Position numbers and translations under genes: made by a program. A stretch of 64,000 nucleotides of DNA from Yuukianura sp. NJ FZ-2021 (lineage: Eukaryota): NCBI GenBank assembly GCA_046563655.1, contig CM102290.1:6200001-6264000 (forward strand), in the 5' to 3' direction. The notes under the pieces are model-generated. The model saw only the letters and a list, made by a program, of their open reading frames with translations, did not search any database and was not told the origin of the DNA. Of the stretch, positions 15,003-45,887 are shown piece by piece. Each line of letters begins with the position of its first letter. The first letter of the stretch is position 1.

Positions 15003-15038
15003 GGAGTTCGAGTTGAGACGCCAAATAGTGTAGACGTG
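15003..15038 (+). promoter_or_regulatory. Putative internal Pol II promoter (Inr-like + DPE AGACG at +28)
   Basis: With A15005 as +1, AGACGTG starts at 15032 (+28), the spacing known for insect LINE internal promoters. Confidence 0.5.
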
Positions 15039-15089
15039 TCACAAATCTCTCCTCTCCTCATTGTCACGAAGCTTAACCCAATACACAAC

Positions 15090-25949: not shown

Positions 25950-27037
25950 TGTAACAGTGGAGAAAGCTGTCAATCAATCTTCTAGTATTGATTGGCAGAT
26001 TTCTCACTGGAGCACGGGAGAAGGGAATGAATTAGTTCATTCCTTTTTCGCGTGTTCCCTAATCAGGAGGGAGACGACCCCAGGGTGCTGACTGATCACC
26101 CTTATCAGCTGCGAAAAGTTTACGACTTTTCGCAATCAACAGTAAAAGTCAAGTCATGAGTAATCTGACGTGACTTAAGTTTCACTTAGTTAGCATTACT
26201 AATTCAAATTGTAAGACAAAGTTTATGTCTTTTTGTAAGAAAATAGATTAAGAAAAAGACTAGAAAATTGATGATTTTAGAACTTTGTAGTTACAAAGTG
26301 TAGATTAGTTTGACATGTTTATTAGTTAATGAGTTCGAAGATCATGTTCTTGCATGTTCAGATCTTCTAATCTTTAGGGATAAATAGAGGATCGGTAGTC
26401 CGACCTCTTGGTCAGTTGTCCGGTAGCTTTTACTTAACTCTTAACTTCTAGTAGGCACTCGGCCAGCCTGGCCCTTAAGTCTAAATTAAAAGCATCTACT
26501 TTCACTTCCTTTTCTTCACTTCTTTCAACTTCTAACTTCCAACGAGACGCTCCAGCCACCGTGGGTCAACCCGGGGAGTACCACCACCAACCAAAGTCTC
26601 CAGCCAACCCAAGGAGAGGTCGAGAGGTCAATCCAAACATCAGTAAGGGGTAGCGCCAAGGCCAGGCCAAAACCTCAGGTATGTAAAGCCACAGCACTTT
26701 ACTAGTAAAAGTACTCAGGTCCTCCTGCTGGGTTATGCCCACAAATGTTTAAAGAGCATTGAAGTTTAGCTACTTTCACTTTCATTCCTACCGACTTCCA
26801 CCAACCAATCCAAGAACTTAGGAAACCCCAGGACTAGTGCTAGACTAGTAGGTCATCGTTCTAACATAGATCAGTTAGGGAACAACTTCATGAGAATAGG
26901 TATTCCGTTCTCTTTTCTTTATTATAGATTATCGTTAGATTGATTGATTATTTCTCTATCGCCATTGATAGGCGTAGGAGTATGTAGATTAGATGATGAT
27001 ACGATGATAGTTAGAGTGAGAGATGGGAGAGGTTTCA
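25950..27037 (+). repeat. 5' LTR (1088 bp)
   Basis: TGTAAC...TTTCA; direct repeat of 44799-45887. Only one 1-bp indel was seen between them by eye. Confidence 0.97.
26379..26417 (+). promoter_or_regulatory. Putative LTR core promoter (TATA-like + Inr TCAGTT)
   Basis: TATA-like ATAAATA ~30 bp upstream of arthropod-type Inr TCAGTT (26412-26417). Confidence 0.45.
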
Positions 27038-27039
27038 AC

Positions 27040-27058
27040 TGGCGACCGTGACAGGATT
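27040..27058 (+). other. Primer-binding site, tRNA-Arg
   Basis: TGGCGACCGTGACAGGATT 2 nt after the LTR; complementary to the 3' end of insect tRNA-Arg(UCG), as in 412/mdg1-type elements. Confidence 0.88.
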
Positions 27059-28142
27059 GGTTGTCATGGAAGTCGCTATTGTCTTTAGAATTTGTTTTCG
27101 GAACAATAGGGATTTAGTCAAGTAGACGGTAGAAGGGGTCATGGACACCTCTATTCATGCAGTAGTAGGTATGGTGGTAGAAAGGTACCACATTAGTACT
27201 GACCGGTGGACTGTCTTTTTGGGACAATAGGAGATGTTGTAGTAGGCACCCCTTTTCCTTCTAGGTTATTATTTTAGGGAAACGATAAGTTAGGTTAAAA
27301 TTTTTCATAACGATATTAGGTTAGATTTCTTCTAGGTAGGTTAACTAATTTTAAGGACTTTTAGTTACTAGACAATTGACCCTCCAAGGGCTAGGATAGG
27401 CCAATGGAGTAAGACTTTAAGTGATTGCAGAACTTGAGTTCCGTGTCCGGAAAGGATTGGATTGTATTATTCCTTGTGAAAAGGACCAGTCGGGTCGATG
27501 AGTTGACCTTAGCAAACGGTGGAATCATGACCGGGCTATAGTTGTGGCTTTGCCCTATAGCTGCTCTTTCGTCGGGTGACAATCAGAAAACTTGGTGAGG
27601 GTGGAGTCATGACCTCCCGAGAGACAGGTTAGTATGTAGGAACAAGATTGGGGAGTGGTCACTTAGAGATATCACGATGGATCCGAAGGGGCGTGGACCC
27701 GCCTTAACTGGGCGGTCCATCATAGTTAGGGTGTTGATGTAGGTGTTAGGGATGTTCCTTCAGTAAGATGGCTAAGGTAGTAGAGGGCCCAATGGACTAC
27801 CGAAGAATGTTAAGGCGTTTTCGTTTACATTTTTGTAAAAGCTGTGAAAGCTTATAGAGCTGTGAAAGCTCACAGAAATTCACAATCCATGCCATCTGAC
27901 CGGGCCAGTAGCCTAAGGCTCGTTGTCAATTTTGCTCTGAAGTATACCCCATGCCTCCGGAAGAGGGCATAAGAGATTTTAAAAATTTTTGGGATTGTGA
28001 GAGGAACTGGTCTGACCCTGAACTAAAGCCACATCAGAGGGGTGATTGACCCGAAGATTGATGGGTCACCTACCTTATACAACTTGGACGTTAAGGTTAG
28101 GAAACTGGAATTGTTGAAATTCCTTTTATTTATCTTCTTAGA

Positions 28143-29525
28143 ATGACGAGGATGATAGGAATTATTTCGATTTGGGTGATGACCTTGATCTGTACAACAA
28201 CTACAATGGCTACCGTTCTCAGTTATGAGAACGAGGACACCATCCGCTGTCACGAAGGGATGGAGTACCCTATGAGGAGACGGAGACAAATTTTGGATCG
28301 GAGGTGGAAAACTTCAAATTTAACTTGGGACGTCAAAGAAGACATTCCCAATACGATGGATTTTAAAGATCTGATAGAGAACTTTGAGTTTGCTTTTCAA
28401 AAATGGGAAGAGATTTCGAATTTTACGTTTAGTCGTAGAGTCAATGAAACTGTAGACATTTCAATTCAATTTGCAAAAGGCTATCATGGCGACGTCATGG
28501 TTTTTGACGGTGTAGGAGGGATCCTAGCACACGCCTACTACCCGAATGTTGGGTTAGGCGGAGACATTCATTTTGATGCAGCCGAAAATTGGACTACCAC
28601 ACCTGGTAGAAAAGGAGTAGATGTATTTTCAGTTATGGTTCACGAGATAGGGCATGCACTAGGCTTATCACACTCTGAAGTACCAGGATCAGTGATGCAT
28701 CCGATGTATCATCTCATTGACAAGAACATGTCTATTGGAAAACGGGATAGAAATGCCTTGCGTGATCTTTATAGATTTAGTCGAAATCTATCGCATGGTA
28801 GGAGGGACGCATCCCCTACCTTGGATAACTTGATACAAAGTATGTGTAAGGAGAATTTCGAACATGTTTTAAAGTGGGGAAATGAGTTCTTCATTTTTAA
28901 TGACAACTACCATTATCGCCTTTCAAAGGGAAAAGTTTCTTTTCCATATAAAGTTTTCAATGCCAACTATTTTCAACATTACCCTCCGAACATGGGAATT
29001 GAGTTAATTTTCCGATTTTATGAGAAAACATTTCTCATTGGTGATGATCAACTCTGGGAGTTTGGGTTCGCAGCAACATTATCACCCGGGTATCCCAAAC
29101 CAATGACAGAACTAGGAATCAATGAAACTAGAGTTATCGGTGTATTGTCATCCCCAAAACGACTGTATTTACAGTTAGAAAACGGCTGGAAACAGTACTA
29201 TATACATCAAAGATTCCTGCAAGAATGGACCTACTCACAAGGCATGCTACCCCAACTTACTAATCTCACCCAGGCGTTTAACGTAATTGATATCCATCCG
29301 GAAGGCTACACCACGTATAATGGTAGCCATATTTTAGATTTTGACACCAATTTGGTCTTACATTCCGTGAAGCCTTTAATGGACTATTTGGAGTTGCCAT
29401 GCAATTCCGTTGAGGCTTTGGTAGTGTCAGAACCTATCGGTGGCCTGCCGTTAACAGGAATAGCTTTAGGTAGTACCACTGTTGTAGTCATAATTGTGGT
29501 GTTAGTTTGCTGGTTTTGCACCTAA
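28143..29525 (+). CDS. Membrane-type matrix metalloproteinase (M10 matrixin)
   Basis: Signal peptide, short prodomain with RC and furin site RRRR, FDGVGGILAHAYYP, GDIHFD, zinc motif HEIGHALGLSHS, Met-turn SVMHP, hemopexin-like region, C-terminal TM; intronless. Confidence 0.95.
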   Translation: MTRMIGIISIWVMTLICTTTTMATVLSYENEDTIRCHEGMEYPMRRRRQILDRRWKTSNLTWDVKEDIPNTMDFKDLIENFEFAFQKWEEISNFTFSRRVNETVDISIQFAKGYHGDVMVFDGVGGILAHAYYPNVGLGGDIHFDAAENWTTTPGRKGVDVFSVMVHEIGHALGLSHSEVPGSVMHPMYHLIDKNMSIGKRDRNALRDLYRFSRNLSHGRRDASPTLDNLIQSMCKENFEHVLKWGNEFFIFNDNYHYRLSKGKVSFPYKVFNANYFQHYPPNMGIELIFRFYEKTFLIGDDQLWEFGFAATLSPGYPKPMTELGINETRVIGVLSSPKRLYLQLENGWKQYYIHQRFLQEWTYSQGMLPQLTNLTQAFNVIDIHPEGYTTYNGSHILDFDTNLVLHSVKPLMDYLELPCNSVEALVVSEPIGGLPLTGIALGSTTVVVIIVVLVCWFCT

Positions 29526-29659
29526 GGGTATCCAGTAGGTTTCGTACCTCTATTTATTTATCCTATTTATTGATTGAATCATTCGGAAAATAAACTAGTA
29601 CGCAGATAATAAGTCGGGTGGAGTTTATATGGTTTGTTTTATTCTAAAGTTAACGTGGA

Positions 29660-31210
29660 ATGAGCGAAGGAGGTTCAAGTCCACCGCGAACTAGAAAACA
29701 ACAACAAGAACCAGAGTTTGGAGTTCACGATTTGTCCATTGTTTTGAAACAAGCCAGAGGGAAGTCGAAGTCACCAAATCAAGGTGATCAACCCCCAGGC
29801 TCGTCTACAGGTGTTGCGGTACCGGAGGTAGGTACATTACCTCAGACTTCCAGACCAAGCGATTCAGGGATTATTGAAGTTAGTATTTCACAACTCGCTT
29901 CTGATATCGAGGAAGTACCGTCAGGCACAGACGAAACTTTTCGATCTATAGAGTCAGGAGGATCTGATCAGGAGGCTGACGTATCCTTAGAAAGCATAAC
30001 TAGTATCCTTTCTCGGAGAGATAGGGTTAAAAGTGAATCGGAGGCAAATAAAATTCCTGAAGGCGAGTCAAGTTCAATGGCTGATCCAACTAGTATGGCA
30101 CAGGCTTCTACCGCGCAGGTTGCTGCACCCCAAGCTGGTGCAAGTAGCACTGCAGCTACTGCAGGGAGCGTCATTCAAGCTCCACCTCCGACCAGCATGA
30201 TTGTATCGATGTGGACACCCCCAGGGGATGTTTTGTTTGAGGGGAAACGCGGGTTTCCAGCATCCAACTTTTTGAGCACGTTTAAAGCAATAGCAGCTAA
30301 CCAGCATTGGGACTCTTCAACTAAGGTGAAGAATTTCCCGTTGTATCTCCGGAAATATGCAAAGACATGGTTTTTGAATTTCATGACGGATTGGGAAAGA
30401 GACCCAGCCCATAAGGACGCGGCAGGGCAACCCATTGAGGTCACTTGGAAAGATCTGAAAGAAGCTTTTCAAACTGATTTCCGTTCTCGTTTAACGGAAG
30501 AGGAGCTTGAGTTCAAGCTCACTCAAATGAAAAGAGCACCCAAAGAATCTGTTGAGGATTATTGTGGAAAAATTGGTCGTTTGTGTGACCAATTGGATAA
30601 AAGTCAAGGTACGGTTATGAAGGAGGAGAAAAGAGTCAATTTTCTTTTGAAGGGACTAACACCAGACGTTAGTCAGGAAATTTTCTTGCGGCAACCGAAG
30701 ACGTCAAAGGACGTTATGAAGTTTTTGATTGAGAAGGAAAATTATGAGTTCATGATGAAGAGAAAGAAGACTAGCGGCGACGTTGGGAAGGTCACTGCTC
30801 AGTTACATAACATAGTAGTAGGCAATGACAGTGACCCAGAAGATTCTTTCAAGGATTCAATGAAGAAATTCGATAAAGCTCTGAAAGTTCAGGATCAGCA
30901 GAGAGGAAAATTCAAAGGCTACAGAGGAATGGCAGGTCATGGTTATAGAGGTAGGGCAATTCCAGGTCAAGGCCCACGCATACCTGTGAATCAGGTTTAT
31001 GGAGGCTTGGCAGCGCAAGCAAATGTTTGGCCACGCCCTAGATTCCCAGCTAACAACTTCCGAGGTCGAGGTCGCGGGTATGTGATGTCACTTGCCTGTT
31101 GGAACTGTGGTGGGCCGCATCGTATGATGCAATGCCCTAATCGACAGCAAGTTGCCACCTCATCCACGCAAACCACACAACCGCAGGGAAACGCCAGAGT
31201 GCATCAGTAG
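29660..31210 (+). CDS. gag: Gag
   Basis: Retrotransposon capsid-like region (AKTWF...TWKDLKEAF...ESVEDY...FLLKGL), RG-rich region, CCHC CWNCGGPHRMMQC. Confidence 0.93.
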   Translation: MSEGGSSPPRTRKQQQEPEFGVHDLSIVLKQARGKSKSPNQGDQPPGSSTGVAVPEVGTLPQTSRPSDSGIIEVSISQLASDIEEVPSGTDETFRSIESGGSDQEADVSLESITSILSRRDRVKSESEANKIPEGESSSMADPTSMAQASTAQVAAPQAGASSTAATAGSVIQAPPPTSMIVSMWTPPGDVLFEGKRGFPASNFLSTFKAIAANQHWDSSTKVKNFPLYLRKYAKTWFLNFMTDWERDPAHKDAAGQPIEVTWKDLKEAFQTDFRSRLTEEELEFKLTQMKRAPKESVEDYCGKIGRLCDQLDKSQGTVMKEEKRVNFLLKGLTPDVSQEIFLRQPKTSKDVMKFLIEKENYEFMMKRKKTSGDVGKVTAQLHNIVVGNDSDPEDSFKDSMKKFDKALKVQDQQRGKFKGYRGMAGHGYRGRAIPGQGPRIPVNQVYGGLAAQANVWPRPRFPANNFRGRGRGYVMSLACWNCGGPHRMMQCPNRQQVATSSTQTTQPQGNARVHQ

Positions 31211-31244
31211 GAAGGGCTGATGTCGAATCTAGTGCAAAGCCTTC
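31186..31244 (+). other. -1 frameshift signal (G GGA AAC + putative pseudoknot), element 2
   Basis: Heptamer 31186-31192 in gag phase; the -1 frame is open into pol. Stem GCATCAG/CTGATGT whose loop GAAGG is complementary to downstream CCTTC. Confidence 0.78.
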
Positions 31245-34200
31245 ACTAAAATCAAATAAAGTCGAAATTGTTCCGGTTTATTCGCTGCTTACCAATGTTT
31301 CATTTGATAATAACAGAATGAACTGCGGTACAGGGATGAATAAGGGCAATTTGATAACTACCATTTATCTGCAAAGAGAAGGAAATCTGAAGAAATGTTC
31401 CTGCTTAATTGACACGGGTGCAGGAATTAGTTTTATTCGAATTAATAACGTTCGTAGAGATGAGTTGAAGGAAGATGACTCAGGTCATAAGATACTCATG
31501 CCCAACAAAGAGAGATTTCCCGTTTTAGGAACTGTAGTCAGAAATGTCACATTCTCTCGGAAGGAAGGTGAATTCGTCACTCACAAGTTTCATGTGGTGG
31601 AAAAAGCTTTTTATGATGTCATCCTGGGAAATGATTTCCATGATGATCACAGTCTAGCTTTGAAGTTTACCAGATCAGGTGGAATCCATGGATCATTTAA
31701 ATATGACAGCATGCCCCAGCCACAAACTTTCAGTTTGTTGACTAAGAAGGCGTTAGAGATCGATATCAATATGTTGTATAAAGTTGAAGATTCACAGGTT
31801 GTTAGACATGAGCCATCCCAACCGAAGGTTTTAACTGTCGATGAAGTAATTTTGCCACCGTTTGCAACAACCAAAGTTAAAGTGTTTCCCATTCATCGCA
31901 TTCAAGGGACTTTAGCGTTTGAGCCGAATAACGTAGCATTGGATAAACTGGGAATTTGTATTCCGTATTTAGCCAATATTCCTGAGGGAGAATTCGATCT
32001 ACCCGTAGATAATCCTAGACCACATCCCGTCCGATTATATCGAGGAGTTAACGTGGGAAATATCTGTAGAGTTCATATTCGAGAAGTTGAATCGGAAGAA
32101 AACATTCGTGAATTGAGAATGCAGTCTACAAAGGAAAATATAGATCAAATTGACATAAACAAGGAATTACCTGAAGAAGAACAAAAACAATTACGAGAAC
32201 TGTTACTCCAGTATGGTGACTGTTTTGCTTGGAATCTAGATCAGCTAGGGAAAGCAAAAGATGTAATGTTTCGAATAGACACAGGAGATTCACTTCCGAT
32301 AAGTTGTCCTCCTTATAAGAAATCCCCGGCGGAAAAAGAGATCATTGATGCTGAGGTAAATAATTTATTGAAGGCAGGGATCATTCGAGAAAGTCGATCT
32401 CCGTGGTCGGCTGGTGTCTCTCTCGTTAAAAAGAAAGATAGTAATAAATATCGAATGGTAGTTGACTGGCGTCGATTAAATTTCGTGACGAAGACTGTGA
32501 ATTGGCCGATGGCCATAATAAGTGAATTGTTGTCTTCATTTAACGGTGCTCGATATTTTTCCTGCATTGATTTAATGAGTGGTTACATGCAACTCCCCAT
32601 CCATCCGGATGATGTAGAAAAGACAAGCTTCGTGACTCATTCAGGCACATATGAATACCTATACATGGGTTTTGGTCTCACCAACGCACCAGCAGCTTTT
32701 AGTGCATATATAAAAACAGTTTTGGGAAATAGAATCCATTCCATATGCACTGCCTATTTAGACGATGTGTGCGTTTTCTCCAAAGATTTCGCAAGCCATC
32801 TTAAGAATCTAGAGGAAGTGCTGCGACAATTTAGAGCTTTCAATTTAACGTTGCAGCCGCCCAAATGCCATTTTGCAAAAACAAAATTGGAAATTTTAGG
32901 ACATGTTATTTCTGGAGAAGGAGTTGCTGTTAATCCAGATAAAGTTAGAGCTATCGTGGAAATGCCACCTCCTAGAAATATTAGCGAAGTTCGAACATTT
33001 CTCGGCATGACCGGTTATTATCGACGTTTTATTTTAAACTACAGTCAGATAGCCCAACCTCTAACGAATTTAACGAAAAAGAATGCAAACTTCAAATGGG
33101 GTTCTGAGGAAGACGAGGCTTTTAACATCTTAAGACAAAAGTTAACTTCCGCACCTATTTTGGCTTTCTTTAATGAAAGTGCTGAACTTGAGTTACACAC
33201 TGACGCATCTCACAAAGGTATTGCAGCCATTTTGAATCAACGGAGTCCGGAAGGAACTCTTCATGTCATTGCATATGCTAGCAGAACTTACAGAGGAGCA
33301 GAAGCTCGTTATAGTACGACAGAACAGGAACTTTTAGCTGTCGTCTGGGGACTGGAAAAATATAGGGAATATATTGGATTCAAGGGAATTATCATTGTTG
33401 TAGACCATCATGCACTTTGTTACTTGAAAACTTGTCGGAATCTACGTAATTCTCGAATGGCTAGGTGGGCTTTACGCCTTCAGGACGTCGACTACGTCAT
33501 CAAACATGTAAATGGTAAAACACATGTCCAAGCCGATTGTTTATCCAGATTTCCAGTGGAAGATAATTCCGAATTTGTTGATGACTTTCCAGATAGTTGG
33601 TACAATTTACAGTTGATTGTTCCAGTAGACTTTACAGAGAAATTAGCTGAGAGACAGCAATTAGATGATCGGTTGGTGAGAATCATCCAGTCGCTCAAGT
33701 CATCCAAACGAAAGTTTAGTAAGAGGTTTAGCTTAGATGACGATGTCTTAAAATATAAATGCCCAAGAAGTCAGAATTTATTACCAGTGATTCCATCTCA
33801 CTGGGTGTCAACCATCCTACCTCATTTTCATGATAACGTCATGATGGGACACATGGGTGTCGCCAGGACATTAGAACGGGCTCGTCAGAGTGTATTTTTC
33901 TTCAAGATGGAGAAATTGATTACCCGTTATGTCAAGTCTTGCAAAACTTGTCAGCTTAGGAGATCGAGAAATACGAAACCAATTGGAAAATTGTGTCCGA
34001 TTCCGGTTGGAGATTTATTTGAGCGTGTGTCTGTCGATGTAATAGGTCCGCTTCCGACTAGTAAGTCAGGAAATAAGTTCATTGTGGTACTGGTGGAGTA
34101 CCTTTCTAGATTCATTTTCGCCAAGGCAATCAAAGCGAATAACACCAAAGCTATGCTTGACTTTTTGATGGACATTATCCAAACACATGGTGTGTTTAAA

Positions 34201-35262
34201 TCAATTCAGACGGATAATGCGAGTACGTTCCGTTCATCCTTCTTTAAACAGTTCAATTCTTTGATCGGAACTGTGAACTTGTACTCCACTCCGTATCATA
34301 GTCGAACCAATGGACTGGTTGAGCGAAGTAACCGTAGTATCGAAGAAATTTTATCTAATTATGTACTGCAGAGTCAAAGGGACTGGGATCGGTATTTAGG
34401 TTCCGCTGTTTTTGCTCTCAATACTGCAGTTCACAAAGAGAGCACTGGGTTTAGCAGCTATTATATCATGTATGGACGCCATCCGTTCCATCCTCTTGAC
34501 GTTGCGTTGGATACATCGCGACAATGGGAAGACATCCCATCACGGATTCGTAAAATGCACGAGGCCAGAGAATTGGCTCGGGTTGGTATTCAAAAGGCAC
34601 AGAAAAAGCAAGCAGGTTTGTTCGATCCCAAACGTCTCCCGTTAGAGTATGACATTGGAGATAAGGTTCTCATTAAAGTTAAAGTTGTCAAAGCTGGCCG
34701 AACTCGGAAATTGGCCATGCGGTATAAAGGTCCATATGTTGTTGTACAGAAGGTCTCACCCTTAGCGTATCATTGCTCACCTGTCGGTGCTGCATCGGAT
34801 GATGTCCCAGTTAGGGTACATATTGAAAATATGAAGCGTTATGTTGAAGATGATTTACTTCACATTTGTGAGAGACTTTCCGCTCCAGGAGTAGCGGCAG
34901 ATCAAGTTGGGGAAGACGGTTGTAATAGACCCACCCAAGAAAATTTTGATGACCTAGCCGAAAAGTTGAAAGGAATTTCGATCGGCAAGGATAATGCTAG
35001 AGCAGTTTCAAATGAGTTGACGAATATTTCGAATTTTGAAATACCGTTGGAGTCGGATGTTCCCAATGAGTTGGAAACCGATGAATTGGAAGAGGACGTG
35101 GAATCCTCTGATGTAGAATCTGAAGAGTTCTTAGAATCTTCTGAAGATGAAGAAATTAGACAAGCAGAGTTAAAAGATAAAGAAGTAAATGTCGAAGAGA
35201 AAAATGTAATTACGACAAGGTACGGCCGAGTAGTCCGAAAACCAGTTAGGTTCCTGGACTAA
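31186..35262 (+). CDS. pol: Pol polyprotein (PR-RT-RH-IN), from the frameshift site
   Basis: LIDTGA, YLDD, TDAS, HDNVMMGHMG..CKTC, VDVIGP/TDNA/VERSN, KGPY, acidic tail ending TRYGRVVRKPVRF; no stops. Confidence 0.97.
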   Translation, partial: GKRQSASVGRADVESSAKPSLKSNKVEIVPVYSLLTNVSFDNNRMNCGTGMNKGNLITTIYLQREGNLKKCSCLIDTGAGISFIRINNVRRDELKEDDSGHKILMPNKERFPVLGTVVRNVTFSRKEGEFVTHKFHVVEKAFYDVILGNDFHDDHSLALKFTRSGGIHGSFKYDSMPQPQTFSLLTKKALEIDINMLYKVEDSQVVRHEPSQPKVLTVDEVILPPFATTKVKVFPIHRIQGTLAFEPNNVALDKLGICIPYLANIPEGEFDLPVDNPRPHPVRLYRGVNVGNICRVHIREVESEENIRELRMQSTKENIDQIDINKELPEEEQKQLRELLLQYGDCFAWNLDQLGKAKDVMFRIDTGDSLPISCPPYKKSPAEKEIIDAEVNNLLKAGIIRESRSPWSAGVSLVKKKDSNKYRMVVDWRRLNFVTKTVNWPMAIISELLSSFNGARYFSCIDLMSGYMQLPIHPDDVEKTSFVTHSGTYEYLYMGFGLTNAPAAFSAYIKTVLGNRIHSICTAYLDDVCVFSKDFASHLKNLEEVLRQFRAFNLTLQPPKCHFAKTKLEILGHVISGEGVAVNPDKVRAIVEMPPPRNISEVRTFLGMTGYYRRFILNYSQIAQPLTNLTKKNANFKWGSEEDEAFNILRQKLTSAPILAFFNESAELELHTDASHKGIAAILNQRSPEGTLHVIAYASRTYRGAEARYSTTEQELLAVVWGLEKYREYIGFKGIIIVVDHHALCYLKTCRNLRNSRMARWALRLQDVDYVIKHVNGKTHVQADCLSRFPVEDNSEFVDDFPDSWYNLQLIVPVDFTEKLAERQQLDDRLVRIIQSLKSSKRKFSKRFSLDDDVLKYKCPRSQNLLPVIPSHWVSTILPHFHDNVMMGHMGVARTLERARQSVFFFKMEKLITRYVKSCKTCQLRRSRNTKPIGKLCPIPVGDLFERVSVDVIGPLPTSKSGNKFIVVLVEYLSRFIFAKAIKANNTKAMLDFLMDIIQTHGVFKSIQTDNASTFRSSFFKQFNSLIGTVNLYSTPYHSRTNGLVERSNRSIEEILSNYVLQSQRDWDRYLGSAVFALNTAVHKESTGFSSYYIMYGRHPFHPLDVALDTSRQWEDIPSRIRKMHEARELARVGIQKAQKKQAGLFDPKRLPLEYDIGDKVLIKVKVVKAGRTRKLAMRYKGPYVVVQKVSPLAYHCSPVGAASDDVPVRVHIENMKRYVEDDLLHICERLSAPGVAADQVGEDGCNRPTQENFDDLAEKLKGISIGKDNARAVSNELTNISNFEIPLESDVPNELETDELEEDVESSDVESEEFLESSEDEEIRQAELKDKEVNVEEKNVITTRYGRVVRKPVRFLD

Positions 35263-35392
35263 AGCCTTGCACATTGGATCTTTCGTGTCCAAGCGCTGTT
35301 GGATAATATAAACTGTAGGCCTGTAAACCATAGGCTTATTGACTAAAAAAATTTTTAGATATACAAAATTTGTCAGGATATTGAGAAAAACA

Positions 35393-36208: not shown

Positions 36209-36274
36209 AACATAACGTGGACATTAAGCTGATTTAACTGAGAATAGAAATACAAAATTTTGGTAGGAATAACT

Positions 36275-37045: not shown

Positions 37046-37172
37046 TAACTGAAAGTCATTAGTCCTAATAGCTGCAAGTAGCTTTAGTAGGAGGACTTGA
37101 GTAGTTGAATAAATATTTGAATTGGGATTTTTGATATTAAGGCATATATCAGAGGTTATAATATTTAAGGAA

Positions 37173-37940: not shown

Positions 37941-38024
37941 TGGTTTAGTGTTAGGAACCACTAGCAATAGGTAGGTAGGTTAGCATAATAATTTTCCTTC
38001 TTGCTTCTTGTACAGAAAAATAAA

Positions 38025-40400
38025 ATGGCGTGCACACTGATCAGTACGTTGATGACGATCGGATTTATTGCCAAAGGAGTGGCATATCAGATCACTCCGA
38101 CAGAGGTTCGAGTGACAACCGGAACAACGATCCGGGAGATCCGGAACACGGAATTGTATACCGCATCGGTCCCATTGATCTACGACATACAAGTGTCATT
38201 CAGAGAATTTGAGAAAAACGTATTCGAGGCCTATAGATGTGTGGAAGTGGATGGAACGTGTATCTTCCCAAACACAATGCGTAGGCCCATCGGACATGTA
38301 TCAGAAATTTTGGGAAATATCATAGCCGATTCCTTAATGAGGGACGAATCAGGTACGTTTGGGATAGTAAGCGAGGACCAAGGTAAGTCCATCGGGAACA
38401 TGGGCCCTACCCGAAACGAAATTGTCAAAGAGAAGCCGGTGATATCAGTGGACGATATACCGATTGCCATTCAGCAGGCAAGAAACCGCGCTCGGTTGAA
38501 TCGAACTAAGCAGACATCCAAGGCTAAGGCTTCGAACCGGGGAAAAAGAGAATTTGATTTTCAGGCATACAACCCTTTAACCTTAATTGGGGACTGGTGG
38601 TCATTTTGTTGTGGTGTGGCTTCTAAAAGAGATTTAAGTGACATTAGCATGAACTCGGAAAAGATGGAACTGTTTCTTTCTGTCATGAAAGATTCAGTTG
38701 TGGAAACTAATCGGAATCTTATGACCATAAAAGGAGGATTGGAAATGTTCCAGGGCAATGCATCTCGCATTTTTAATTCCGTCCACCGACAGATTGAAAT
38801 AACGATGCGCGAACAACAGGAATTACAAGGGGAAGAGGATGCCCTGACAAAAGATGTGAAACGGTTAGAAAAGGAATTACTTTCACATCAAATGACTTTT
38901 GTCCAGGTTTATGAACACCTTAACTCGATCATGGAAATTATGAGATTTAAAGATCTCCAAGATCACTGTAGAGCAGGAACCATTTCTATCTTAGCAATTC
39001 CATTCAAACGATTGATTGCAGATTTGGGGGAATTGTCAAAGCAATTGCAAAACGATGGATACGAATTAGTTGTTCCGCCATCCGAAATCTCGAGATATTA
39101 CAAGTTAAAGATCGCTGATTGTGCATTTACCACGGAAGGACGAACGATCTTTAGATTGAGAATTCCAATCAGGCGTAAGGCCGCAAACTGGAAATTGTAC
39201 GCAATGACTAACATACCATTCAGTTATAAGGGTAGTACGTGCATTCTGCAACATGCGCCCACATATCTGGCATTAAGTAACGATACGTTGGTCACAATTC
39301 AGGGAACTCAATTACAACAATGTAAACCAGAGTCAGGATTGTGTTTGATCCCTCAATTTAATTCGGATCCACTCACTGGTTACATGTGTGCCCAAAAGTT
39401 GCTGAGAGGTGCATCACTAGCGGAATTAAATGAGTATTGTCTTTTTGAATGTTTGGCAGACAAGAGCGAGTTAACGATTTCACAACTGGATCATCATACT
39501 TTTGCGGTGACGGGTGCGACTGAAACCATGAACATAAGATGTCATAATAGAGACGATGATATTGATTTTCCGTTAGAGCCACCACCACATGGTATAGGAA
39601 GTATAGAAGTTAAGTTGGCATGCGACTGTGAGTTGCAGTTGCCAGGTAGAATGCCTATTAAACCACCGTATCCATGTCCTATCGGTTTGGCAGAAAGACC
39701 TCGAGTAAATCTGGTAATTCCAGCAATGATGGCACGAATGGATGTGTTGTTGAACACTACCCGATTTGGCAGAAACTCTGAGAAGAAGTTATATCCCGAC
39801 TTGAAAACAATATTTAACGAGACTTGGGATTTGGGATCTCCAAGGCTGAATTTGACAGAGATGAGTCATTTGAAGTCCATGATGGTTCCGAAATTAATTC
39901 AAATAACAGCCCCATCAACAAATACAGCGTTGATAATTTGGAATATCGTACTTTCAGTAGGCGTAGCCCTACTCTTGTACAAACAGTTCATGGCAAACGG
40001 GGGAATGGTCTTTGGAGTTCCCTTTGCAGGACAAATAGGAGGAGCAGTTGCGAATCCCACAGGCGTAGAATTGCATCATGCTATTAACATGTTCACCGTC
40101 GTCATGTGGTTAGTTTTATTACTCGTACTTTTGGGAGGACTCACCTGGTTTTACTGGCGTAAAAGGAACCAACTTAAGAAACAAAGAGAGGAACGAGATA
40201 AAGTGCGAAAAATGGAGATTTCCGAACCCTTCGTAGGAACGAGAGTTCAGTTTAATTTAGACGCTGAACAAGGGCGTCCACCACTGAAAATTATTTTGCA
40301 TTCTCCACAAGCTGACAAAATTGTGGACTTGATTAAGAGTGCTGTGAGTGAGTTGGAAGAACCAGCTCAAGAGTCTACCAGCGTAGATACTCGTGTTTAA
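38025..40400 (+). CDS. env: Env fusion glycoprotein (baculovirus-F/errantivirus-like)
   Basis: Signal peptide, furin RGKR, fusion peptide LIGDWWSFCCGV, heptad region, Cys-rich ectodomain, hydrophobic TM segments; homologous to element 1 env. Confidence 0.9.
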   Translation: MACTLISTLMTIGFIAKGVAYQITPTEVRVTTGTTIREIRNTELYTASVPLIYDIQVSFREFEKNVFEAYRCVEVDGTCIFPNTMRRPIGHVSEILGNIIADSLMRDESGTFGIVSEDQGKSIGNMGPTRNEIVKEKPVISVDDIPIAIQQARNRARLNRTKQTSKAKASNRGKREFDFQAYNPLTLIGDWWSFCCGVASKRDLSDISMNSEKMELFLSVMKDSVVETNRNLMTIKGGLEMFQGNASRIFNSVHRQIEITMREQQELQGEEDALTKDVKRLEKELLSHQMTFVQVYEHLNSIMEIMRFKDLQDHCRAGTISILAIPFKRLIADLGELSKQLQNDGYELVVPPSEISRYYKLKIADCAFTTEGRTIFRLRIPIRRKAANWKLYAMTNIPFSYKGSTCILQHAPTYLALSNDTLVTIQGTQLQQCKPESGLCLIPQFNSDPLTGYMCAQKLLRGASLAELNEYCLFECLADKSELTISQLDHHTFAVTGATETMNIRCHNRDDDIDFPLEPPPHGIGSIEVKLACDCELQLPGRMPIKPPYPCPIGLAERPRVNLVIPAMMARMDVLLNTTRFGRNSEKKLYPDLKTIFNETWDLGSPRLNLTEMSHLKSMMVPKLIQITAPSTNTALIIWNIVLSVGVALLLYKQFMANGGMVFGVPFAGQIGGAVANPTGVELHHAINMFTVVMWLVLLLVLLGGLTWFYWRKRNQLKKQREERDKVRKMEISEPFVGTRVQFNLDAEQGRPPLKIILHSPQADKIVDLIKSAVSELEEPAQESTSVDTRV

Positions 40401-40946
40401 GCATACGAGCAGGTCGAAAACATACCTCCTCGTTCAAATTTGACCCAGGTCTACCATTGACGATTTCATAATCACATTACTTCATCCAGCTCAGAAGCTT
40501 CCGATTTTTTTTTTAAATTTAAATTATTTTAAATTTTCTTATTTTATTCCAAATTCCAGAAAAAGTTTTACGTTAAACTCTGTACGTTAACGTAATTGTG
40601 GGAAAGTTGAAAAGTCAGGAGAATTTAGGTCCGGAGATTTGGATGGTCAGAGTCGCATTGACACCGCCATCACCACTGGAATTCTATCAGGATAGCCGTT
40701 TCTTCTTTTAGGATTTTCTATTATAATAAGTTCTGGACATTTCGCTTGCGATAGTGTGATGAGGTCACTAAGGGATCACAGTCAATGGGAAAAAGTAATT
40801 TAAGAGTCATAAATGTCAGAAACTTCAGAAAAACTGCATTTAGCGAACTCTCAGGATCGACATTAGAATTGCTGAAAGTATAACAAAAAAAAGGAAATAA
40901 GTTGGGGAAGAATGATTTTCCCGTAATTATAATTTAAATTTTAGAT

Positions 40947-41879
40947 ATGGCAAGGAGACAAGCTCCCGATTACTGGAAAAGTCAGATGCACAGATTCCGA
41001 GATCCCTCCACTATTGGGTGGATACAACATTGGAAAGAGATCGCCGCGAGCGAGTACAAACCTAGTAAGGGGTACCTACAAGACGTAAAAGATATCGAGT
41101 CAATTCTAGCGTCAAAGAAATCGAGAGTTGAGAAACAACACGAATTAGAACATAAGGTCAGTCAGGCTCGTAGTTTTAGCCCTATTGAAATGAGTATGTT
41201 ATCAATCCATTTTCCAGAGATAGAGCAACCTATGTGGAAACATATGCAATATAGCCTCCACTACATTGAGGATAAGATCAAGGAATTTCAAATGTGGTAT
41301 TATCCGAAGACAGGACTAGTTCAAGATAGTTATCTTTTACCATACTCACATCATGAGGCTGTATATAGGTTTTCGAAGGGGATGAGAAAACTTAGTCATC
41401 CCATCCATACACAAATTGTCGATAACGTAGATGGGGTTTATCTTGCTTTGAACATCGGAGTTTACATTTCTTTAAATATAGATGAAAAGATCCATTTGGC
41501 ACAACGATATCAGCACGTACCAGTTTACAAAGGTAGAATTGTTAGAACACATGAAACCGCGGATGCTATCTTGTTCGGGGAAGCCGAATTCTTAAAGACT
41601 AGAATGATAGAGGTTCACACAATTTTGATGTACAATGGGGGTAGACCTTCGGAAATTGATTTCTTTATGTACTATCATAATGTAATATGGAGAGAACGAG
41701 AGAAATCGTTGAAATCTCGTCAAGCCCATTACAGTCATTTGAGAAACATGAGATATCTAAAAATGGGATGGGATGATGACGCAGAATTTCGATCTTACTA
41801 TCACAGGAACAGCGATCCGTTCTTTAGTAGCAGCTCCAATAGCTCCGAATCGTCCGATCACACAGACGAAAGCGAATAG
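40947..41879 (+). CDS. Hypothetical 310-aa accessory protein
   Basis: Intact ATG-started sense ORF after a TTTTAG acceptor; no motif recognised. Confidence 0.65.
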   Translation: MARRQAPDYWKSQMHRFRDPSTIGWIQHWKEIAASEYKPSKGYLQDVKDIESILASKKSRVEKQHELEHKVSQARSFSPIEMSMLSIHFPEIEQPMWKHMQYSLHYIEDKIKEFQMWYYPKTGLVQDSYLLPYSHHEAVYRFSKGMRKLSHPIHTQIVDNVDGVYLALNIGVYISLNIDEKIHLAQRYQHVPVYKGRIVRTHETADAILFGEAEFLKTRMIEVHTILMYNGGRPSEIDFFMYYHNVIWREREKSLKSRQAHYSHLRNMRYLKMGWDDDAEFRSYYHRNSDPFFSSSSNSSESSDHTDESE

Positions 41880-41911
41880 CAGATTCCGAGTCATCAAGAA
41901 GACTCACCAAG

Positions 41912-42898
41912 ATGAACGACACGTCATTTTTAGAATATAGACGGATGTCACAATATGCTTTTCCATTAATTAGATCAAGCGCAAATTCTGCAGGTTTAGA
42001 TTTAACTTGTGCATACGAGAAAATAATTCAACCTAGGTCTTGGGGTTTAGTACTAACTGACATACAGGTCAAGTTACCGGCAGGTACTTATGGAAGGGTT
42101 GTACCCAAATCCGGATTAGCAGTTAAACATGGGATTACGTTAGAGTCAGGAATTATAGATCCCGATTTTCAAGGGACTATTGGTGTTGTTCTGTTTAATC
42201 ATTTAAACGAGGAGTTTACAGTAAAGAGAGGAGATAGATTCGCACAACTTATATGTGAAAAATTTGCACAACCAGAAGTTGTGGAAGTACAGGAAATTGT
42301 ACCAAGCATTCGCGGAGTGCGAAGCTTAGTGTCCATCAGAAATAGAGGACAGATTCAAGGAGACGGTTCAGGAGACGGACTTCTGTATTCTTTTGGAACA
42401 ATTTTGAAAAATGTTAAAATTATTCCAACCATGGGACGTGTAATAAGACACGTTTGCTTCATGACGATTGAAGACGTCGTGAGTGCACGAGCAAAAGGGA
42501 GCTTGACAGAGGTGCTTGAAGAAATAGCACGGCAGAAAACCGAATTTCGGTCACAAGTAGCAGTCTCAGTAGATTTCTTCTTAACGCTGCGCTTAGAAGA
42601 TATTATGGAGGTAGTAGAACAATTTTGCTTTTACCCTCCTCAATATTTCTATATGTATCCTGGACACGTTTGTATTGATCTTGCCACAAAGAAGCCATAC
42701 GACAGTATCGTAGGGTTGTGGCATATCATGGAGCGTACTCACACTTGTACAAATTTATTCGTGCACGCAGAATTATTTAATGCCATAACGTTAAAGTTTA
42801 ACGTGCTCCGAAAGTTGAAATTGTTAGAAGAGTCACCAGCAGCAGGACCTAGTAGTGCTGTAAGTGCAAATGCAAGCGTAAATACTAAATCTAAGTAA
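41912..42898 (+). CDS. dut: dUTPase-like protein with C-terminal extension
   Basis: Motifs I AGLDL, II GRVVPKSGLA, III GIIDPDFQG and IV GDRFAQLI; motif V degenerate (RGVRSLVS); ~185 extra C-terminal residues. Confidence 0.88.
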   Translation: MNDTSFLEYRRMSQYAFPLIRSSANSAGLDLTCAYEKIIQPRSWGLVLTDIQVKLPAGTYGRVVPKSGLAVKHGITLESGIIDPDFQGTIGVVLFNHLNEEFTVKRGDRFAQLICEKFAQPEVVEVQEIVPSIRGVRSLVSIRNRGQIQGDGSGDGLLYSFGTILKNVKIIPTMGRVIRHVCFMTIEDVVSARAKGSLTEVLEEIARQKTEFRSQVAVSVDFFLTLRLEDIMEVVEQFCFYPPQYFYMYPGHVCIDLATKKPYDSIVGLWHIMERTHTCTNLFVHAELFNAITLKFNVLRKLKLLEESPAAGPSSAVSANASVNTKSK

Positions 42899-42914
42899 AT
42901 ATTTCAATTCCAGA

Positions 42915-44483
42915 ATGCAAAAGATACTGAATGTAAAGCAGCATAAGATTAGGCTATTTACAACACCTACAGAATATTATAAAATTAGACATAAGAAAAA
43001 TATCGACATTGAGGTCATTCAACCCAAGCTAAAGAAAGAGATGATGGAGATGAGGGCCAGCTCTACTTTGCGTAATAAGCTGTTACACTTGCCGTTGAGA
43101 TCAGACAGACCACAGATCTTGCCCGAGATAATCCGAGAGGAAACAACACTCCTGGCTAACATCAGGAAGATCTATGATCGGAAACCGATGGTGATCTATG
43201 CGTTCCAGAACGAACAGACATATCTTGGGGAAACCACCCATATCGCAATCATGACTCCAGAGCGAGGTTTTGTCATTGATGCTAAAGAGACCGCCAAGCA
43301 GTTGCTGGAGCCTTTAAGAATTTTGATGGAATCCTCAGAAATTGCGAAGATTACGTATCAAGGGGAACGTCAGTTTAAGGCACTACTTAGAGATTTTGGC
43401 ATAACAGCAGCGGGTATAGTGGATATCGCTAAACTTCCACTCGTGGGAATCTCTGACTCAACAACGTCCTTCAGTTATGCAGCCTTGTGCCAGCAGTACA
43501 TTGATGAACACGTAGCAGTGGTAGACTACCAAACCGTTTGTGACACTCAGTTCAGCTCTCATGTTATAGAACACTTCCAGCTGATGACCGATTTTGCAGA
43601 GCAATTGCTGAACGTTTGGCTAGGCATTACTGACTCCTTACGACGAGACTTCATGAACCAGACAACGCGAATCATTGACCGGTGGCTACATGAGACAGAA
43701 AAAGACGTGGCTCTCTCCGTCCCACGCCCTGCATTTGAATCAACTTATCTCGGATGCTCCACCAGATTGCAATGCCTTCATACGACGGTAGTGACCATCG
43801 CTCGAAATCTTGACTGCCCTATCAGTTTGTTTGAATCCGATATTGAAGTGTGGAAGCGCTGCAGCAATGACGAGTTTGTACGAGGAGTACTGCGCAGATT
43901 TCGTCGCCTCCCAAAACCCGAGGGCATCCCGACGGATGCGTATGAACGTATCATGCCATCCTTGTATCATGAGTACGAGATCAAGTTTGACTTCAACGAC
44001 GCCATTCTTCGCCCCCAGTCATCCAAAGCTAAAGAGGTGCCAGTTAAGTCAATGGTCCCAAACCCTCTTCATTCGTCAAAAAGTTGTCTTGCCGTTGGGA
44101 AGCGTCGTATACAAGAATTCATTCCGGAGGTTGTTCAGGTCAAAGCACCAAAGACTCAAGAACGCCATGAGAAGCGCGAGGCCAGGCGAGAGCGGAACCA
44201 GAGACACCGAGAGGCCAGAGAACACGATCGAGATGAACGTTCCCTGCTACGTGAGCGAGTCCGAATTTTGGAGCAGCAGATGGCCACGATGCAGAAACAG
44301 ATGACCGGAGTCCTCCTTTGGAAGAGTTCCCGATCCAGCCGACCGGAAGCAGTGCCGGGCGCGAACAGACGAGGTACAAGGGAAGATCTACACCCTCCAG
44401 GTGATACACCCCCTCCGCCTTCCAGTACCCCTTGGCACAACCGACACCCCATCCCCTCTCCAGAGCGGAATCCTTGGGATTGA
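42915..44483 (+). CDS. Rrp6/RNase D-like 3'-5' exonuclease-fold protein, probably inactive
   Basis: TYLGETTHIAIMT..GFVID..L..LMESSEIAKI..G..LLRDFG..IVD follows the RNase D/EXOSC10 pattern; possible HRDC-like segment; DEDD acidic residues not evident. Confidence 0.62.
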   Translation: MQKILNVKQHKIRLFTTPTEYYKIRHKKNIDIEVIQPKLKKEMMEMRASSTLRNKLLHLPLRSDRPQILPEIIREETTLLANIRKIYDRKPMVIYAFQNEQTYLGETTHIAIMTPERGFVIDAKETAKQLLEPLRILMESSEIAKITYQGERQFKALLRDFGITAAGIVDIAKLPLVGISDSTTSFSYAALCQQYIDEHVAVVDYQTVCDTQFSSHVIEHFQLMTDFAEQLLNVWLGITDSLRRDFMNQTTRIIDRWLHETEKDVALSVPRPAFESTYLGCSTRLQCLHTTVVTIARNLDCPISLFESDIEVWKRCSNDEFVRGVLRRFRRLPKPEGIPTDAYERIMPSLYHEYEIKFDFNDAILRPQSSKAKEVPVKSMVPNPLHSSKSCLAVGKRRIQEFIPEVVQVKAPKTQERHEKREARRERNQRHREAREHDRDERSLLRERVRILEQQMATMQKQMTGVLLWKSSRSSRPEAVPGANRRGTREDLHPPGDTPPPPSSTPWHNRHPIPSPERNPWD

Positions 44484-44785
44484 ATGTTGACGACTTCAGT
44501 AATTTAATGTAGTACATCTTGTTGCGGTACATGTAACGGTTAATGACAGAGATATGCCCAAGCAGAGAGGGCTTGAGACAGCAGACGTAGTAAATTTATT
44601 TGTAGAATGTCCTAGACTGATAGGATGAGTTAGGCACTTCAAGATAACGCACTTTGTGACCTCTGCTTATCATGTCTTAGCTACTAGGTTATCACGGCAC
44701 GCGGAAATCGTGACTTTGTCACATATGTTAGGTTAGGTTAGGATAAGTTCGTTACACATGTAATCGCCGAGGACGGCTCATGACT

Positions 44786-44798
44786 AAGTTGGGGAAGA
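44786..44798 (+). other. Polypurine tract
   Basis: AAGTTGGGGAAGA immediately before the 3' LTR TG. Confidence 0.8.
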
Positions 44799-45887
44799 TG
44801 TAACAGTGGAGAAAGCTGTCAATCAATCTTCTAGTATTGATTGGCAGATTTCTCACTGGAGCACGGGAGAAGGGAATGAATTAGTTCATTCCTTTTTCGC
44901 GTGTTCCCTAATCAGGAGGGAGACGACCCCAGGGTGCTGACTGATCACCCTTATCAGCTGCGAAAAGTTTACGACTTTTCGCAATCAACAGTAAAAGTCA
45001 AGTCATGAGTAATCTGACGTGACTTAAGTTTCACTTAGTTAGCATTACTAATTCAAATTGTAAGACAAAGTTTATGTCTTTTTGTAAGAAAATAGATTAG
45101 AGAAAAAGACTAGAAAATTGATGATTTTAGAACTTTGTAGTTACAAAGTGTAGATTAGTTTGACATGTTTATTAGTTAATGAGTTCGAAGATCATGTTCT
45201 TGCATGTTCAGATCTTCTAATCTTTAGGGATAAATAGAGGATCGGTAGTCCGACCTCTTGGTCAGTTGTCCGGTAGCTTTTACTTAACTCTTAACTTCTA
45301 GTAGGCACTCGGCCAGCCTGGCCCTTAAGTCTAAATTAAAAGCATCTACTTTCACTTCCTTTTCTTCACTTCTTTCAACTTCTAACTTCCAACGAGACGC
45401 TCCAGCCACCGTGGGTCAACCCGGGGAGTACCACCACCAACCAAAGTCTCCAGCCAACCCAAGGAGAGGTCGAGAGGTCAATCCAAACATCAGTAAGGGG
45501 TAGCGCCAAGGCCAGGCCAAAACCTCAGGTATGTAAAGCCACAGCACTTTACTAGTAAAAGTACTCAGGTCCTCCTGCTGGGTTATGCCCACAAATGTTT
45601 AAAGAGCATTGAAGTTTAGCTACTTTCACTTTCATTCCTACCGACTTCCACCAACCAATCCAAGAACTTAGGAAACCCCAGGACTAGTGCTAGACTAGTA
45701 GGTCATCGTTCTAACATAGATCAGTTAGGGAACAACTTCATGAGAATAGGTATTCCGTTCTCTTTTCTTTATTATAGATTATCGTTAGATTGATTGATTA
45801 TTTCTCTATCGCCATTGATAGGCGTAGGAGTATGTAGATTAGATGATGATACGATGATAGTTAGAGTGAGAGATGGGAGAGGTTTCA
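44799..45887 (+). repeat. 3' LTR (1089 bp)
   Basis: Copy of 25950-27037 with one extra G (~45100). Confidence 0.97.

Follow-up and report, generated by a model that had tools for sequence, protein, structure and literature searches.

A 19.9-kb env-carrying Ty3/gypsy provirus in the genome of Yuukianura sp. with seven additional genes that are very probably its own

The 64,000-nucleotide stretch of contig CM102290.1 from Yuukianura sp. NJ FZ-2021 analysed here (assembly GCA_046563655.1, positions 6,200,001 to 6,264,000; this whole stretch is referred to as the window) contains a giant retroelement of the Ty3/gypsy type that raises a simple question: do the seven genes it carries besides gag, pol and env belong to the element, or are they passengers, or even the product of a wrongly joined assembly? 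The answer reached below, regarded as very probable, is that the element is a very recently integrated provirus, that it belongs to a multi-copy Ty3/gypsy family of complex, env-carrying (errantivirus-like) elements, and that its seven extra genes are integral to it and kept by selection rather than transduced.

The element spans window positions 25950–45887, i.e. 19,938 nt in total with an interior of ~17.8 kb (17.76 kb), as obtained by a direct-repeat search and alignment and checked by script. Its two long terminal repeats (LTRs) differ solely in a 1-nt indel, a G present only in the 3' LTR, opposite position 26251. The host satellite at the insertion has a unit of ~543 bp, in which the empty-site sequence GGATTTCAGAAAAGTAAC occurs exactly 39 times among 44 matches with at most 2 mismatches; the junctions of the element are the half-sites ...CAGAAA/TGT and TCA/GAAAAG of that sequence, standing in the 543-nt register with the adjoining monomers, so that the insertion duplicated 4 bp, GAAA, as its target-site duplication (TSD). 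Paired TG...CA LTRs, a short TSD, a primer-binding site (PBS) and a polypurine tract (PPT) are all present, as in members of Ty3/gypsy (Metaviridae), whereas the compact errantivirus layout, with env right after pol within 4–10 kb, is not seen: pol and env are 2.76 kb and three open reading frames (ORFs) apart, and the whole measures 19.9 kb.

All ten ORFs (255–1314 aa) are intact and lie on the + strand with spacers of 16–546 nt, in the order matrix metalloproteinase (MMP), gag, pol, P1, P2, P3, F-type env, orphan, dUTPase and Rrp6-like protein (Table 1); the longest antisense ORF starting from ATG has 149 aa. A codon model trained on gag, pol and env gave each of the ten ORFs a positive score in the frame it is read in and a negative one in the five others. 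A search of the interior for long repeats, direct or inverted, gave none pointing to a nested insertion, and an Rfam search revealed no family in the element. An initial annotation, made from the letters alone, had already proposed an intact giant gypsy element of ~20 kb with seven extra genes, ordered LTR-PBS-MMP-gag-pol-three ORFs-env-orphan-dUTPase-Rrp6-like-PPT-LTR, with all ORFs open and in the sense direction, LTRs about one indel apart and a clean TSD; the ORFs and the Pfam assignments bear this description out.

Table 1 Features of the element and its insertion site, in window coordinates
Feature	Position	Strand	Remarks
5' TSD copy GAAA	25946..25949		within satellite
5' LTR	25950..27037	+	1088 nt, TGT...TCA ends
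Leader, 1.1 kb	27038..28142	+	acceptor-like site (13/15 pyrimidines + TAG) at its end, 1 nt before MMP ATG
PBS-like TGGCGACCGTGACAGG	27040..27055	+	starts 2 nt past 5' LTR
ORF1, membrane-anchored MMP, 460 aa	28143..29525	+	Peptidase_M10 8e-48, full-length profile match
gag, 516 aa	29660..31210	+	Retrotrans_gag (3e-12)/Ty3_capsid; CX2CX3HX4C knuckle-like motif
pol	31141..35262	+	protease (PR) with DTG, reverse transcriptase (RT), RNase H, integrase (IN); -1 relative to gag
Slippery heptamer GGGAAAC	31186..31192	+	reads G GGA AAC in gag frame; candidate site for -1 gag-pol frameshift
PPT internal copy 1, AAGTTGGGGAAGA	34904..34916	+	within pol
P1, 271 aa	35393..36208	+	paralog, no named family
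P2, 256 aa	36275..37045	+	48% identical to P1
P3, 255 aa	37173..37940	+	27% identical to P1
env, 791 aa	38025..40400	+	F-type, Baculo_F 4e-7 over residues 254-538; RGKR furin-like site; C-terminal hydrophobic segments
PPT internal copy 2, AAGTTGGGGAAGA	40899..40911	+	env-orphan spacer
Orphan ORF, 310 aa	40947..41879	+	no family; core-like codon usage in own frame only
dUTPase (aa 1-139) with ~190-aa C-terminal domain	41912..42898	+	dUTPase 4e-31; C-terminal domain common to L001
Rrp6-like exonuclease-fold protein, 522 aa	42915..44483	+	DNA_pol_A_exo1 3e-6; arginine-rich/coiled C-terminus
PPT AAGTTGGGGAAGA (13 nt)	44786..44798	+	abuts 3' LTR
3' LTR	44799..45887	+	1089 nt, TGT...TCA ends
3' TSD copy GAAA	45888..45891		within satellite

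Whether such an element exists as a family was approached through contigs of three DNA runs (X1–X3) of one sample, placed on positions 27038–46000 at a likeness of at least 85%, which gave 707, 1007 and 227 contigs per run. Their distribution over the identity classes 99+/95–99/90–95/<90, being 239/137/207/124, 358/227/299/123 and 88/54/55/30 in the three runs in order, indicates that the genome contains members of the family that differ in age. The eight near-identical contigs listed for X1 show depths of 376–480 from gag to the orphan-dUTPase junction (gag 474, P1-P2 444, P3 376, env 434, env-orphan 458, orphan-dUTPase 411), with bins of 448–674 over the dUTPase and exonuclease genes and 2560 over the LTR; the even depth means that the core and accessory genes are present at about equal dosage. 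The junctions pol-P1, P1-P2, P3-env, env-orphan, orphan-dUTPase and dUTPase-exonuclease are bridged among the contigs listed, and diverged pieces were found over the MMP (45 differences in 985 nt), P2 (38/399), env (24/860), dUTPase (20/762) and exonuclease (46/907) genes. The search for further copies, suggested in the initial annotation, thus returned several at differing divergence, including pieces over the accessory genes.

The same contigs allowed the selection on the accessory ORFs to be examined, as had also been advised. Among the coding differences listed, 32 of 39 are synonymous, where the codons would by chance give ~27% if transitions are favoured by a bias of 4 (binomial P 2e-12), the counts per gene being 12/17 for MMP (2.4e-4), 5/6 for P2 (7e-3), 6/6 for env, 8/8 for pol, 1/1 for gag and 0/1 for P1. 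At least two of the accessory genes, MMP and P2, show selection. Contigs of X1 and X3 contain, in addition, an internally deleted derivative with the joints 28672>41801 and 41857>42962, which leads from the zinc-site region of the MMP gene to the end of the orphan, through 37 foreign letters, and on to the start of the exonuclease-like gene. It has a depth of 296 versus ~450 for the full form in X1 as well as variants of its own at 28448, 28451, 28532 and 28538, and it looks like a non-autonomous member of the family.

Concerning P1–P3, Pfam gives nothing above its curated cut-offs, and the synonymous sites between the paralogs are saturated (pS 0.76–0.81), for which reason a between-paralog dN/dS is not computable. 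Searching 1.84 billion representatives with a profile built from P1–P3 recovered three proteins at E <= 0.001, two of which, P0116 (233 aa) and P0117 (285 aa), are relatives with E ~3e-4, P0116 being the only one also given by a profile word search; the third, P0115, was set aside as repetitive (20 repeated stretches at profile positions 203–235). The family including both relatives has in common the conserved columns HE, Y..L(S/T)..Q..R and E...C..D. Modelled with AlphaFold on the alignment of five sequences, P1 gave a mean pLDDT of 70.7; with this model, Foldseek found no match at E <= 0.001 in either PDB or BFVD, and the best VIA-align results (Z up to 5.2) were generic helical bundles on residues 178–265. 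Polerovirus P0 silencing suppressors, appearing at BFVD ranks 5, 17 and 41, were rejected as noise (E 0.13–0.84, TM <0.2). The initial annotation had called the three ORFs F-box-like and proposed a hijacking of ubiquitination, for which neither Pfam nor the PDB profile search provides backing: no F-box family appears for P1–P3 or P0117 in Pfam at max_evalue 10 (with HMMER filters dropping most matches above ~0.1) and none is found among the 7 weak PDB profile matches of the family. The sole hint is one weak local fold match of residues 25–66 of the P1 model to residues 29–70 of cyclin F (Z 4.1, rmsd 2.2, 42 aligned, rank 45 of 50). The ORF located between pol and env in a second, smaller element of the same window does not belong to the P family (hhalign probability 0.2%).

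P0117 is encoded on a metagenome contig of 3,041 nt, L001, which carries, in this order, the P-family protein, a dUTPase and an exonuclease-like protein. Its dUTPase, having a long C-terminal extension, is 40% identical to that of the element over 295 aa, a span that takes in the extension (E 1e-72), and its exonuclease-like protein is 26% identical to the Rrp6-like one over 284 aa (E 3e-24). Three gene kinds in the same order at such divergence indicate that the cassette is old and conserved. It may be added that the last 93 nt of L001 (2949–3041), following the exonuclease-like ORF, read DLIFSNLTLKQVSAIAEVYPRIRID... and resemble the P-family N-terminal motif ...EA..YPR(I/V); a second P-family gene may begin there, hhalign aligning the motif without significance (E 0.04, 13 columns).

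The trimeric dUTPases have a core of motifs I–IV and a glycine-rich C-terminal motif V, RGxxGFGS. In the element, residues 5–139 align to the shrimp (3e-37) and human (1e-36) enzymes with the conserved core present, whereas motif V is degenerate in the present copy, reading RGVRSLVS versus RGEGGF in shrimp and RGDKGFGS in L001. The C-terminal ~190 aa correspond to no Pfam family. The gene to which nucleotide modulation had been ascribed has the dUTPase core (4e-31) and, in the present copy, a degenerate motif V.

The Rrp6-like protein matches Pfam DNA_pol_A_exo1 with 27.6 bits at a cut-off of 23.6, its L001 homologue with 32.9 bits, and a profile of these two sequences has 18 matches in the PDB, where Rrp6/EXOSC10 takes all of the first 13 places (best 5.3e-6), with a CCHC-domain protein and Egalitarian next. 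As a single sequence, the ORF has no match in the PDB and none among 8,000 word-sharing candidates. In the alignment, the Asp and Glu of the Rrp6 'VDlE' are paired with Y/S and A/C; the Asp of ExoII, which in human HGADSDI is the second D and in the yeast chain is mutated to N, is paired with Gln in both proteins. These mapped residues of ExoI (DxE) and ExoII (D) are the ones which we take to be catalytic in Rrp6, and shifting the alignment could restore the Glu at best. With non-acidic residues at three mapped catalytic positions, the domain is homologous to Rrp6 but probably not a nuclease, and an effect of the protein on RNA decay, if any, would not proceed via a nuclease activity of its own. 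The earlier proposal of RNA-decay modulation was thus correct as to the Rrp6 homology, the three non-acidic positions speaking against its enzymatic side. A single-sequence AlphaFold model of the ORF was useless (mean pLDDT 33). Its rows in the protein atlas, a Nucleocytoviricota exonuclease and an arthropod Exd1 homolog (score 0.85; 148–151 features in common), are taken as leads only; EXD1 is an inactive Rrp6-like partner in the biogenesis of PIWI-interacting RNAs (piRNAs). In the C-terminal part, at 44180–44320, an arginine-rich stretch precedes a leucine-rich heptad-like one (KREARRERNQRHREAREHDRDERSLLRERVRILEQQM), which gives the impression, and just that, of the proteins with which complex retroviruses bind and export RNA.

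With regard to the MMP, its zinc site HEIGHALGLSH aligns to that of human MMP-12, the best PDB match (4e-38), both the zinc site and the Met-turn of matrixins being present. The N-terminus is hydrophobic and signal-peptide-like, and the extreme C-terminus is hydrophobic too. The canonical cysteine-switch motif of MMP propeptides is PRCGxPD; the short propeptide found here has IRCHEGM instead, followed by a furin-like RRRR. The hemopexin-like region is partial, scoring 21.0 bits in Pfam at a cut-off of 21.3, and the alignment with MMP-12 extends into it. The predicted layout is that of a furin-activated, membrane- or glycosylphosphatidylinositol-anchored MMP. Scans of IMG/VR with the MMP, with the dUTPase and with the exonuclease alignment yielded no relatives of any of them. 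As for the orphan, it has no match in Pfam even at max_evalue 10, and its SWIM-type rows in the atlas (0.91–0.92) were dismissed as untrustworthy (recognition 2065, i.e. <2300, with only 133–146 features in common).

The core genes are of the expected kind. Pol exhibits the Pfam domains RVT_1 (370–531), RNase H (594–723), Integrase_H2C2 (825–883) and rve (903–994), hence the order PR-RT-RNase H-IN; its best matches in a collection of 5.8 billion proteins are only 37–40% identical, the best named ones originating from a pseudoscorpion and a tick (arachnid). Env shares 22% identity (E 2e-31) with the F-type env of the neighbouring element in the window. From 31141 onward pol stays open in the -1 frame, sharing 70 nt with gag, and a -1 reading enters the protease with LIDTGAG; GGGAAAC in the overlap represents the textbook arrangement for a -1 frameshift, which ribosomes would presumably use. 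Acceptor-like sites (13/15 pyrimidines + YAG), totalling only 20 in 17.76 kb, end 1 nt before the MMP ATG (28141) and 9 nt before the env ATG (38015), and donor-like sites are seen at 26679 in the LTR and at 27336 and 27628 in the leader; since these acceptor-like sites directly precede the two start codons, spliced mRNAs for MMP and env are likely. There are no tRNA genes within the 64-kb window.

The 13-nt PPT occurs in the window in three exact copies, all of them on the + strand and inside the element, with 0.17 copies expected and none of 100 shuffles giving three; the sequences flanking the three copies are unrelated to one another. Internal PPTs are present in lentiviruses and, in the sources drawn on here, have been reported for plant LTR elements. 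The two internal copies may be read as additional plus-strand primers for the 17.8-kb interior. It should be mentioned that at the stretch 34882–34915 around the PPT in pol, seven contigs in each of X1 and X2 end or switch to unrelated sequence on both sides; the loose ends lie at 34882 and 34915 with an agreement of 0.56–0.60, and the stretch seems to be common to other genomic repeats.

When compared with known systems, the element resembles the env-carrying Ty3/gypsy errantiviruses in the broad sense (Chary & Hayashi, eLife 2026, PMC13524379), described in the main text of that survey as multi-copy recent families across metazoans, with which it shares the order LTR-PBS-gag-pol(PR-RT-RH-IN)-F-type env-PPT-LTR and a 4-bp TSD. 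It differs in being twice their size and in having three ORFs (2.76 kb) between pol and env, one before gag and three after env. That survey was limited to a pol-env gap of <=500–1000 nt, a region of <=10 kb and an LTR distance of <=14 kb, so that, by its main text, an element of the present architecture could not have been found there; the terms accessory, dUTPase, metalloprot- and exonuclease are absent from the same main text. The planarian Burro/GYPSM1 (Arkhipova & Yushenova 2019, PMC6431247), likewise cited from part of its source, is a giant gypsy-like provirus of >30 kb with many copies and shares with the present element its env homology, a dUTPase domain and the presence of domains thought to disturb host pathways. 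In Burro, however, the extra domains (BIR, BCL2-like, MATH/TRAF, ankyrin, SUMO-like), among them ones related to apoptosis or ubiquitin, reside in one polyprotein of ~5,000 aa, env lies in frame between gag and pol, and the dUTPase lies between PR and RT, whereas the present element has ten separate ORFs and a different set, namely an MMP, the P family, a dUTPase that stands alone and bears a new C-terminal domain, and a putatively dead Rrp6-like protein.

The LTR elements Juno, Vesta and TelKA of bdelloid rotifers, according to the sections used of Rodriguez et al. (2017, PMC5408684), carry a dUTPase domain inside pol and an ORF3 of one type per family: an RNase D/Rrp6-like DEDDy exonuclease, a GDSL esterase or a paramyxovirus-like F env. 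The kinds dUTPase, Rrp6-like exonuclease and F-type env are thus shared, but in the present element all three occur together as separate genes, along with the MMP, the P family and the orphan, and the rotifer exonuclease keeps its catalytic residues (DEED) where the mapped positions are non-acidic here (PMC5408684). Fish foamy-like endogenous retroviruses, up to 17 kb long with accessory ORFs in the consulted part of PMC6431247, and complex vertebrate retroviruses are alike in having several accessory ORFs besides gag-pol-env; in contrast to these, the element has a pol of the Ty3/gypsy type (not Retroviridae), an F-type env and unrelated accessory genes. No retroelement-encoded MMP and no such gene set were found described in the literature searched, the only paper combining matrixin, retrotransposon and gypsy dealing, in the part seen, with baculovirus-like contigs in a mite. 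To call the element an undescribed system, as the initial annotation did, is therefore too strong in view of Burro and the rotifer elements, giant or ORF-capturing LTR elements being already known, yet the present variant appears new, its architecture not having been found in that literature. What appears to be new is the combination: ten genes, with an MMP before gag, a triplicated new family, a stand-alone dUTPase joined to a new domain, a probably dead Rrp6-like protein and triple PPTs.

Several explanations compete with the one preferred. The giant might be an assembly artefact or a nested composite, i.e. a normal 8–10-kb element into which other mobile DNA has been inserted or mis-joined, and it does lie within a long, hard-to-assemble satellite array with no placed contig covering it whole. 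The matching LTRs and the clean in-register 4-bp TSD nevertheless frame a single insertion devoid of internal LTR-like or terminal-inverted-repeat-like repeats, the ten ORFs run on one strand with 16–546-nt spacers, the contigs listed bridge the gene junctions named above, one 13-nt PPT is spread over the element, and L001 links P, dUTPase and exonuclease independently, all of which makes such an origin hardly credible. An ordinary gypsy-type element with recent, roleless host genes (MMP, dUTPase, exonuclease), captured by transduction or template switching, would suit the degenerate dUTPase motif V and exonuclease catalytic positions as well as the cell-like character of the MMP and dUTPase, whose best PDB matches are human MMP-12 (4e-38) and the shrimp and human dUTPases (3e-37, 1e-36); LTR elements are, moreover, known to capture ORFs downstream of pol, as stated in the consulted part of PMC6431247. 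Against recent capture there are the mostly synonymous differences between copies (12/17 in MMP and 5/6 in P2 among those listed), three paralogs diverged to 48% and 27% identity with their frames intact, the even depth over core and accessory genes, the acceptor-like sites right before the MMP and env ATGs, and the distant L001, which has the P-dUTPase-exonuclease order, the C-terminal domain of the dUTPase and, where ExoII was mapped, the replacement by Gln in common with the element, so that this explanation is judged very improbable.

That the element is a currently infectious exogenous retrovirus, newly arrived in the host germ line, would agree with its wholly intact genes, near-identical LTRs, an env with a furin-like site and membrane anchors, and between-copy differences that are mostly synonymous, as expected from replication through functional copies. 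The evidence, however, does not separate infection from intracellular retrotransposition, and an endogenous family would account just as well for the abundant internally deleted derivative and for the position in the satellite; a presently infectious agent is thus considered distinctly unlikely. Of the earlier designation as a recently active complex invertebrate retrovirus, what holds is an intact, very young, complex env-carrying Ty3/gypsy insertion belonging to a multi-copy family.

The reading as a provirus with integral, selection-kept extra genes has to be weighed against several points as well. The three runs represent one sample, possibly the source of the assembly itself, and provide no independent confirmation of the assembled structure, and contig depth gives no absolute copy number. 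The differences listed are 40 of 1,288 (39 coding and one intergenic), those on one contig are linked, the only one in P1 is non-synonymous, and none of them falls in P3, the orphan, the dUTPase or the exonuclease gene; selection on these four rests on intact frames and codon usage, complemented for the dUTPase and exonuclease by the L001 homologues. L001 is a 3-kb fragment without RT or LTR and does not establish a retroelement nature, and the orphan is without a relative in any of the protein-family or atlas searches made. The degenerate motif V and the non-acidic exonuclease positions mean that the two 'enzymes', the dUTPase and the Rrp6-like protein, may not act as such in the present copy. 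Expression, splicing and the use of the frameshift are, finally, what we infer from the sequence.

As far as the rest of the window is concerned, most of it is filled by the ~543-bp satellite array (GC ~0.37–0.38; 1–7980, 17800–25949 and 45888–~52400), which is interrupted by two LTR-type elements, has a variant unit of 388 bp at 3444–4336 according to TRF, and shows a contig depth ~300x that of the element interior (bin 45395–46000). The second, smaller env-carrying gypsy-type element, situated at ~7980–17800 (ORFs 8166–16166), has a pol 34% identical to that of the giant, an env frame seemingly split into 12654–13328 (signal-peptide-like end) and 13369–15033 (main part), and an extra ORF of 358 aa at 15090–16166 without a known family; no LTR pair was found for it with the settings used. 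At the end of the satellite array, positions 52641–53861 contain a fragment of a BEL/Pao-type integrase (Integrase_H2C2 + DUF5641, 1.5e-33), and the ORFs at 55–64 kb have no Pfam match.

If the preferred reading of an integral gene set is right, the life cycle of the provirus could be outlined as follows. A long genomic RNA would be reverse-transcribed from a tRNA primer, with plus-strand synthesis primed at the three identical PPTs (34904, 40899 and 44786), which would shorten the second-strand synthesis of the 17.8-kb interior. The MMP and Env would be translated from spliced mRNAs formed via the acceptor-like sites at 28141 and 38015 and, both being predicted furin-processed membrane proteins, may both sit on budding particles, where Env would fuse membranes and the MMP would open a way for particles from one tissue to the next by cutting extracellular matrix or basal lamina; some baculoviruses have MMPs that serve this purpose. 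A dUTPase is present in some complex vertebrate retrovirus lineages, and the dUTPase domain, with its conserved extra domain beside it, would lower dUTP during reverse transcription in the manner of non-primate lentiviruses and betaretroviruses. It is a matter of speculation that P1–P3 and the probably dead Rrp6-like protein would most likely bind host proteins or RNA and so blunt the RNA-based control of the host. A still bolder version, offered tentatively and rather unlikely to hold, would make the element the first to be recognised from an old lineage of complex invertebrate retroviruses, whose defining feature is a conserved accessory cassette (P-family proteins, a dUTPase carrying the novel C-terminal domain and an Rrp6-like RNA binder that is catalytically dead) neutralising what the host directs at the unspliced 18-kb RNA, be it RNA surveillance or control of the piRNA type, whose virion-borne, furin-activated MMP opens basal laminae for movement from soma to germ line or between hosts, and whose internal PPTs allow a genome of double size.

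What retroviruses are to vertebrates, env-carrying gypsy elements are to invertebrates, and the usual description of them is that of a simple gag-pol-env unit. The element from Yuukianura sp. shows that gypsy-type proviruses can attain the coding complexity of complex vertebrate retroviruses. Since elements of this kind fall outside the limits on size and gap that the largest published survey applied, more of them may await in existing assemblies. The membrane-anchored MMP is a candidate for how particles cross tissue barriers toward the germ line, and the probably dead Rrp6-like protein, together with the new protein family, are candidates for how long unspliced RNAs escape the RNA control of the host.

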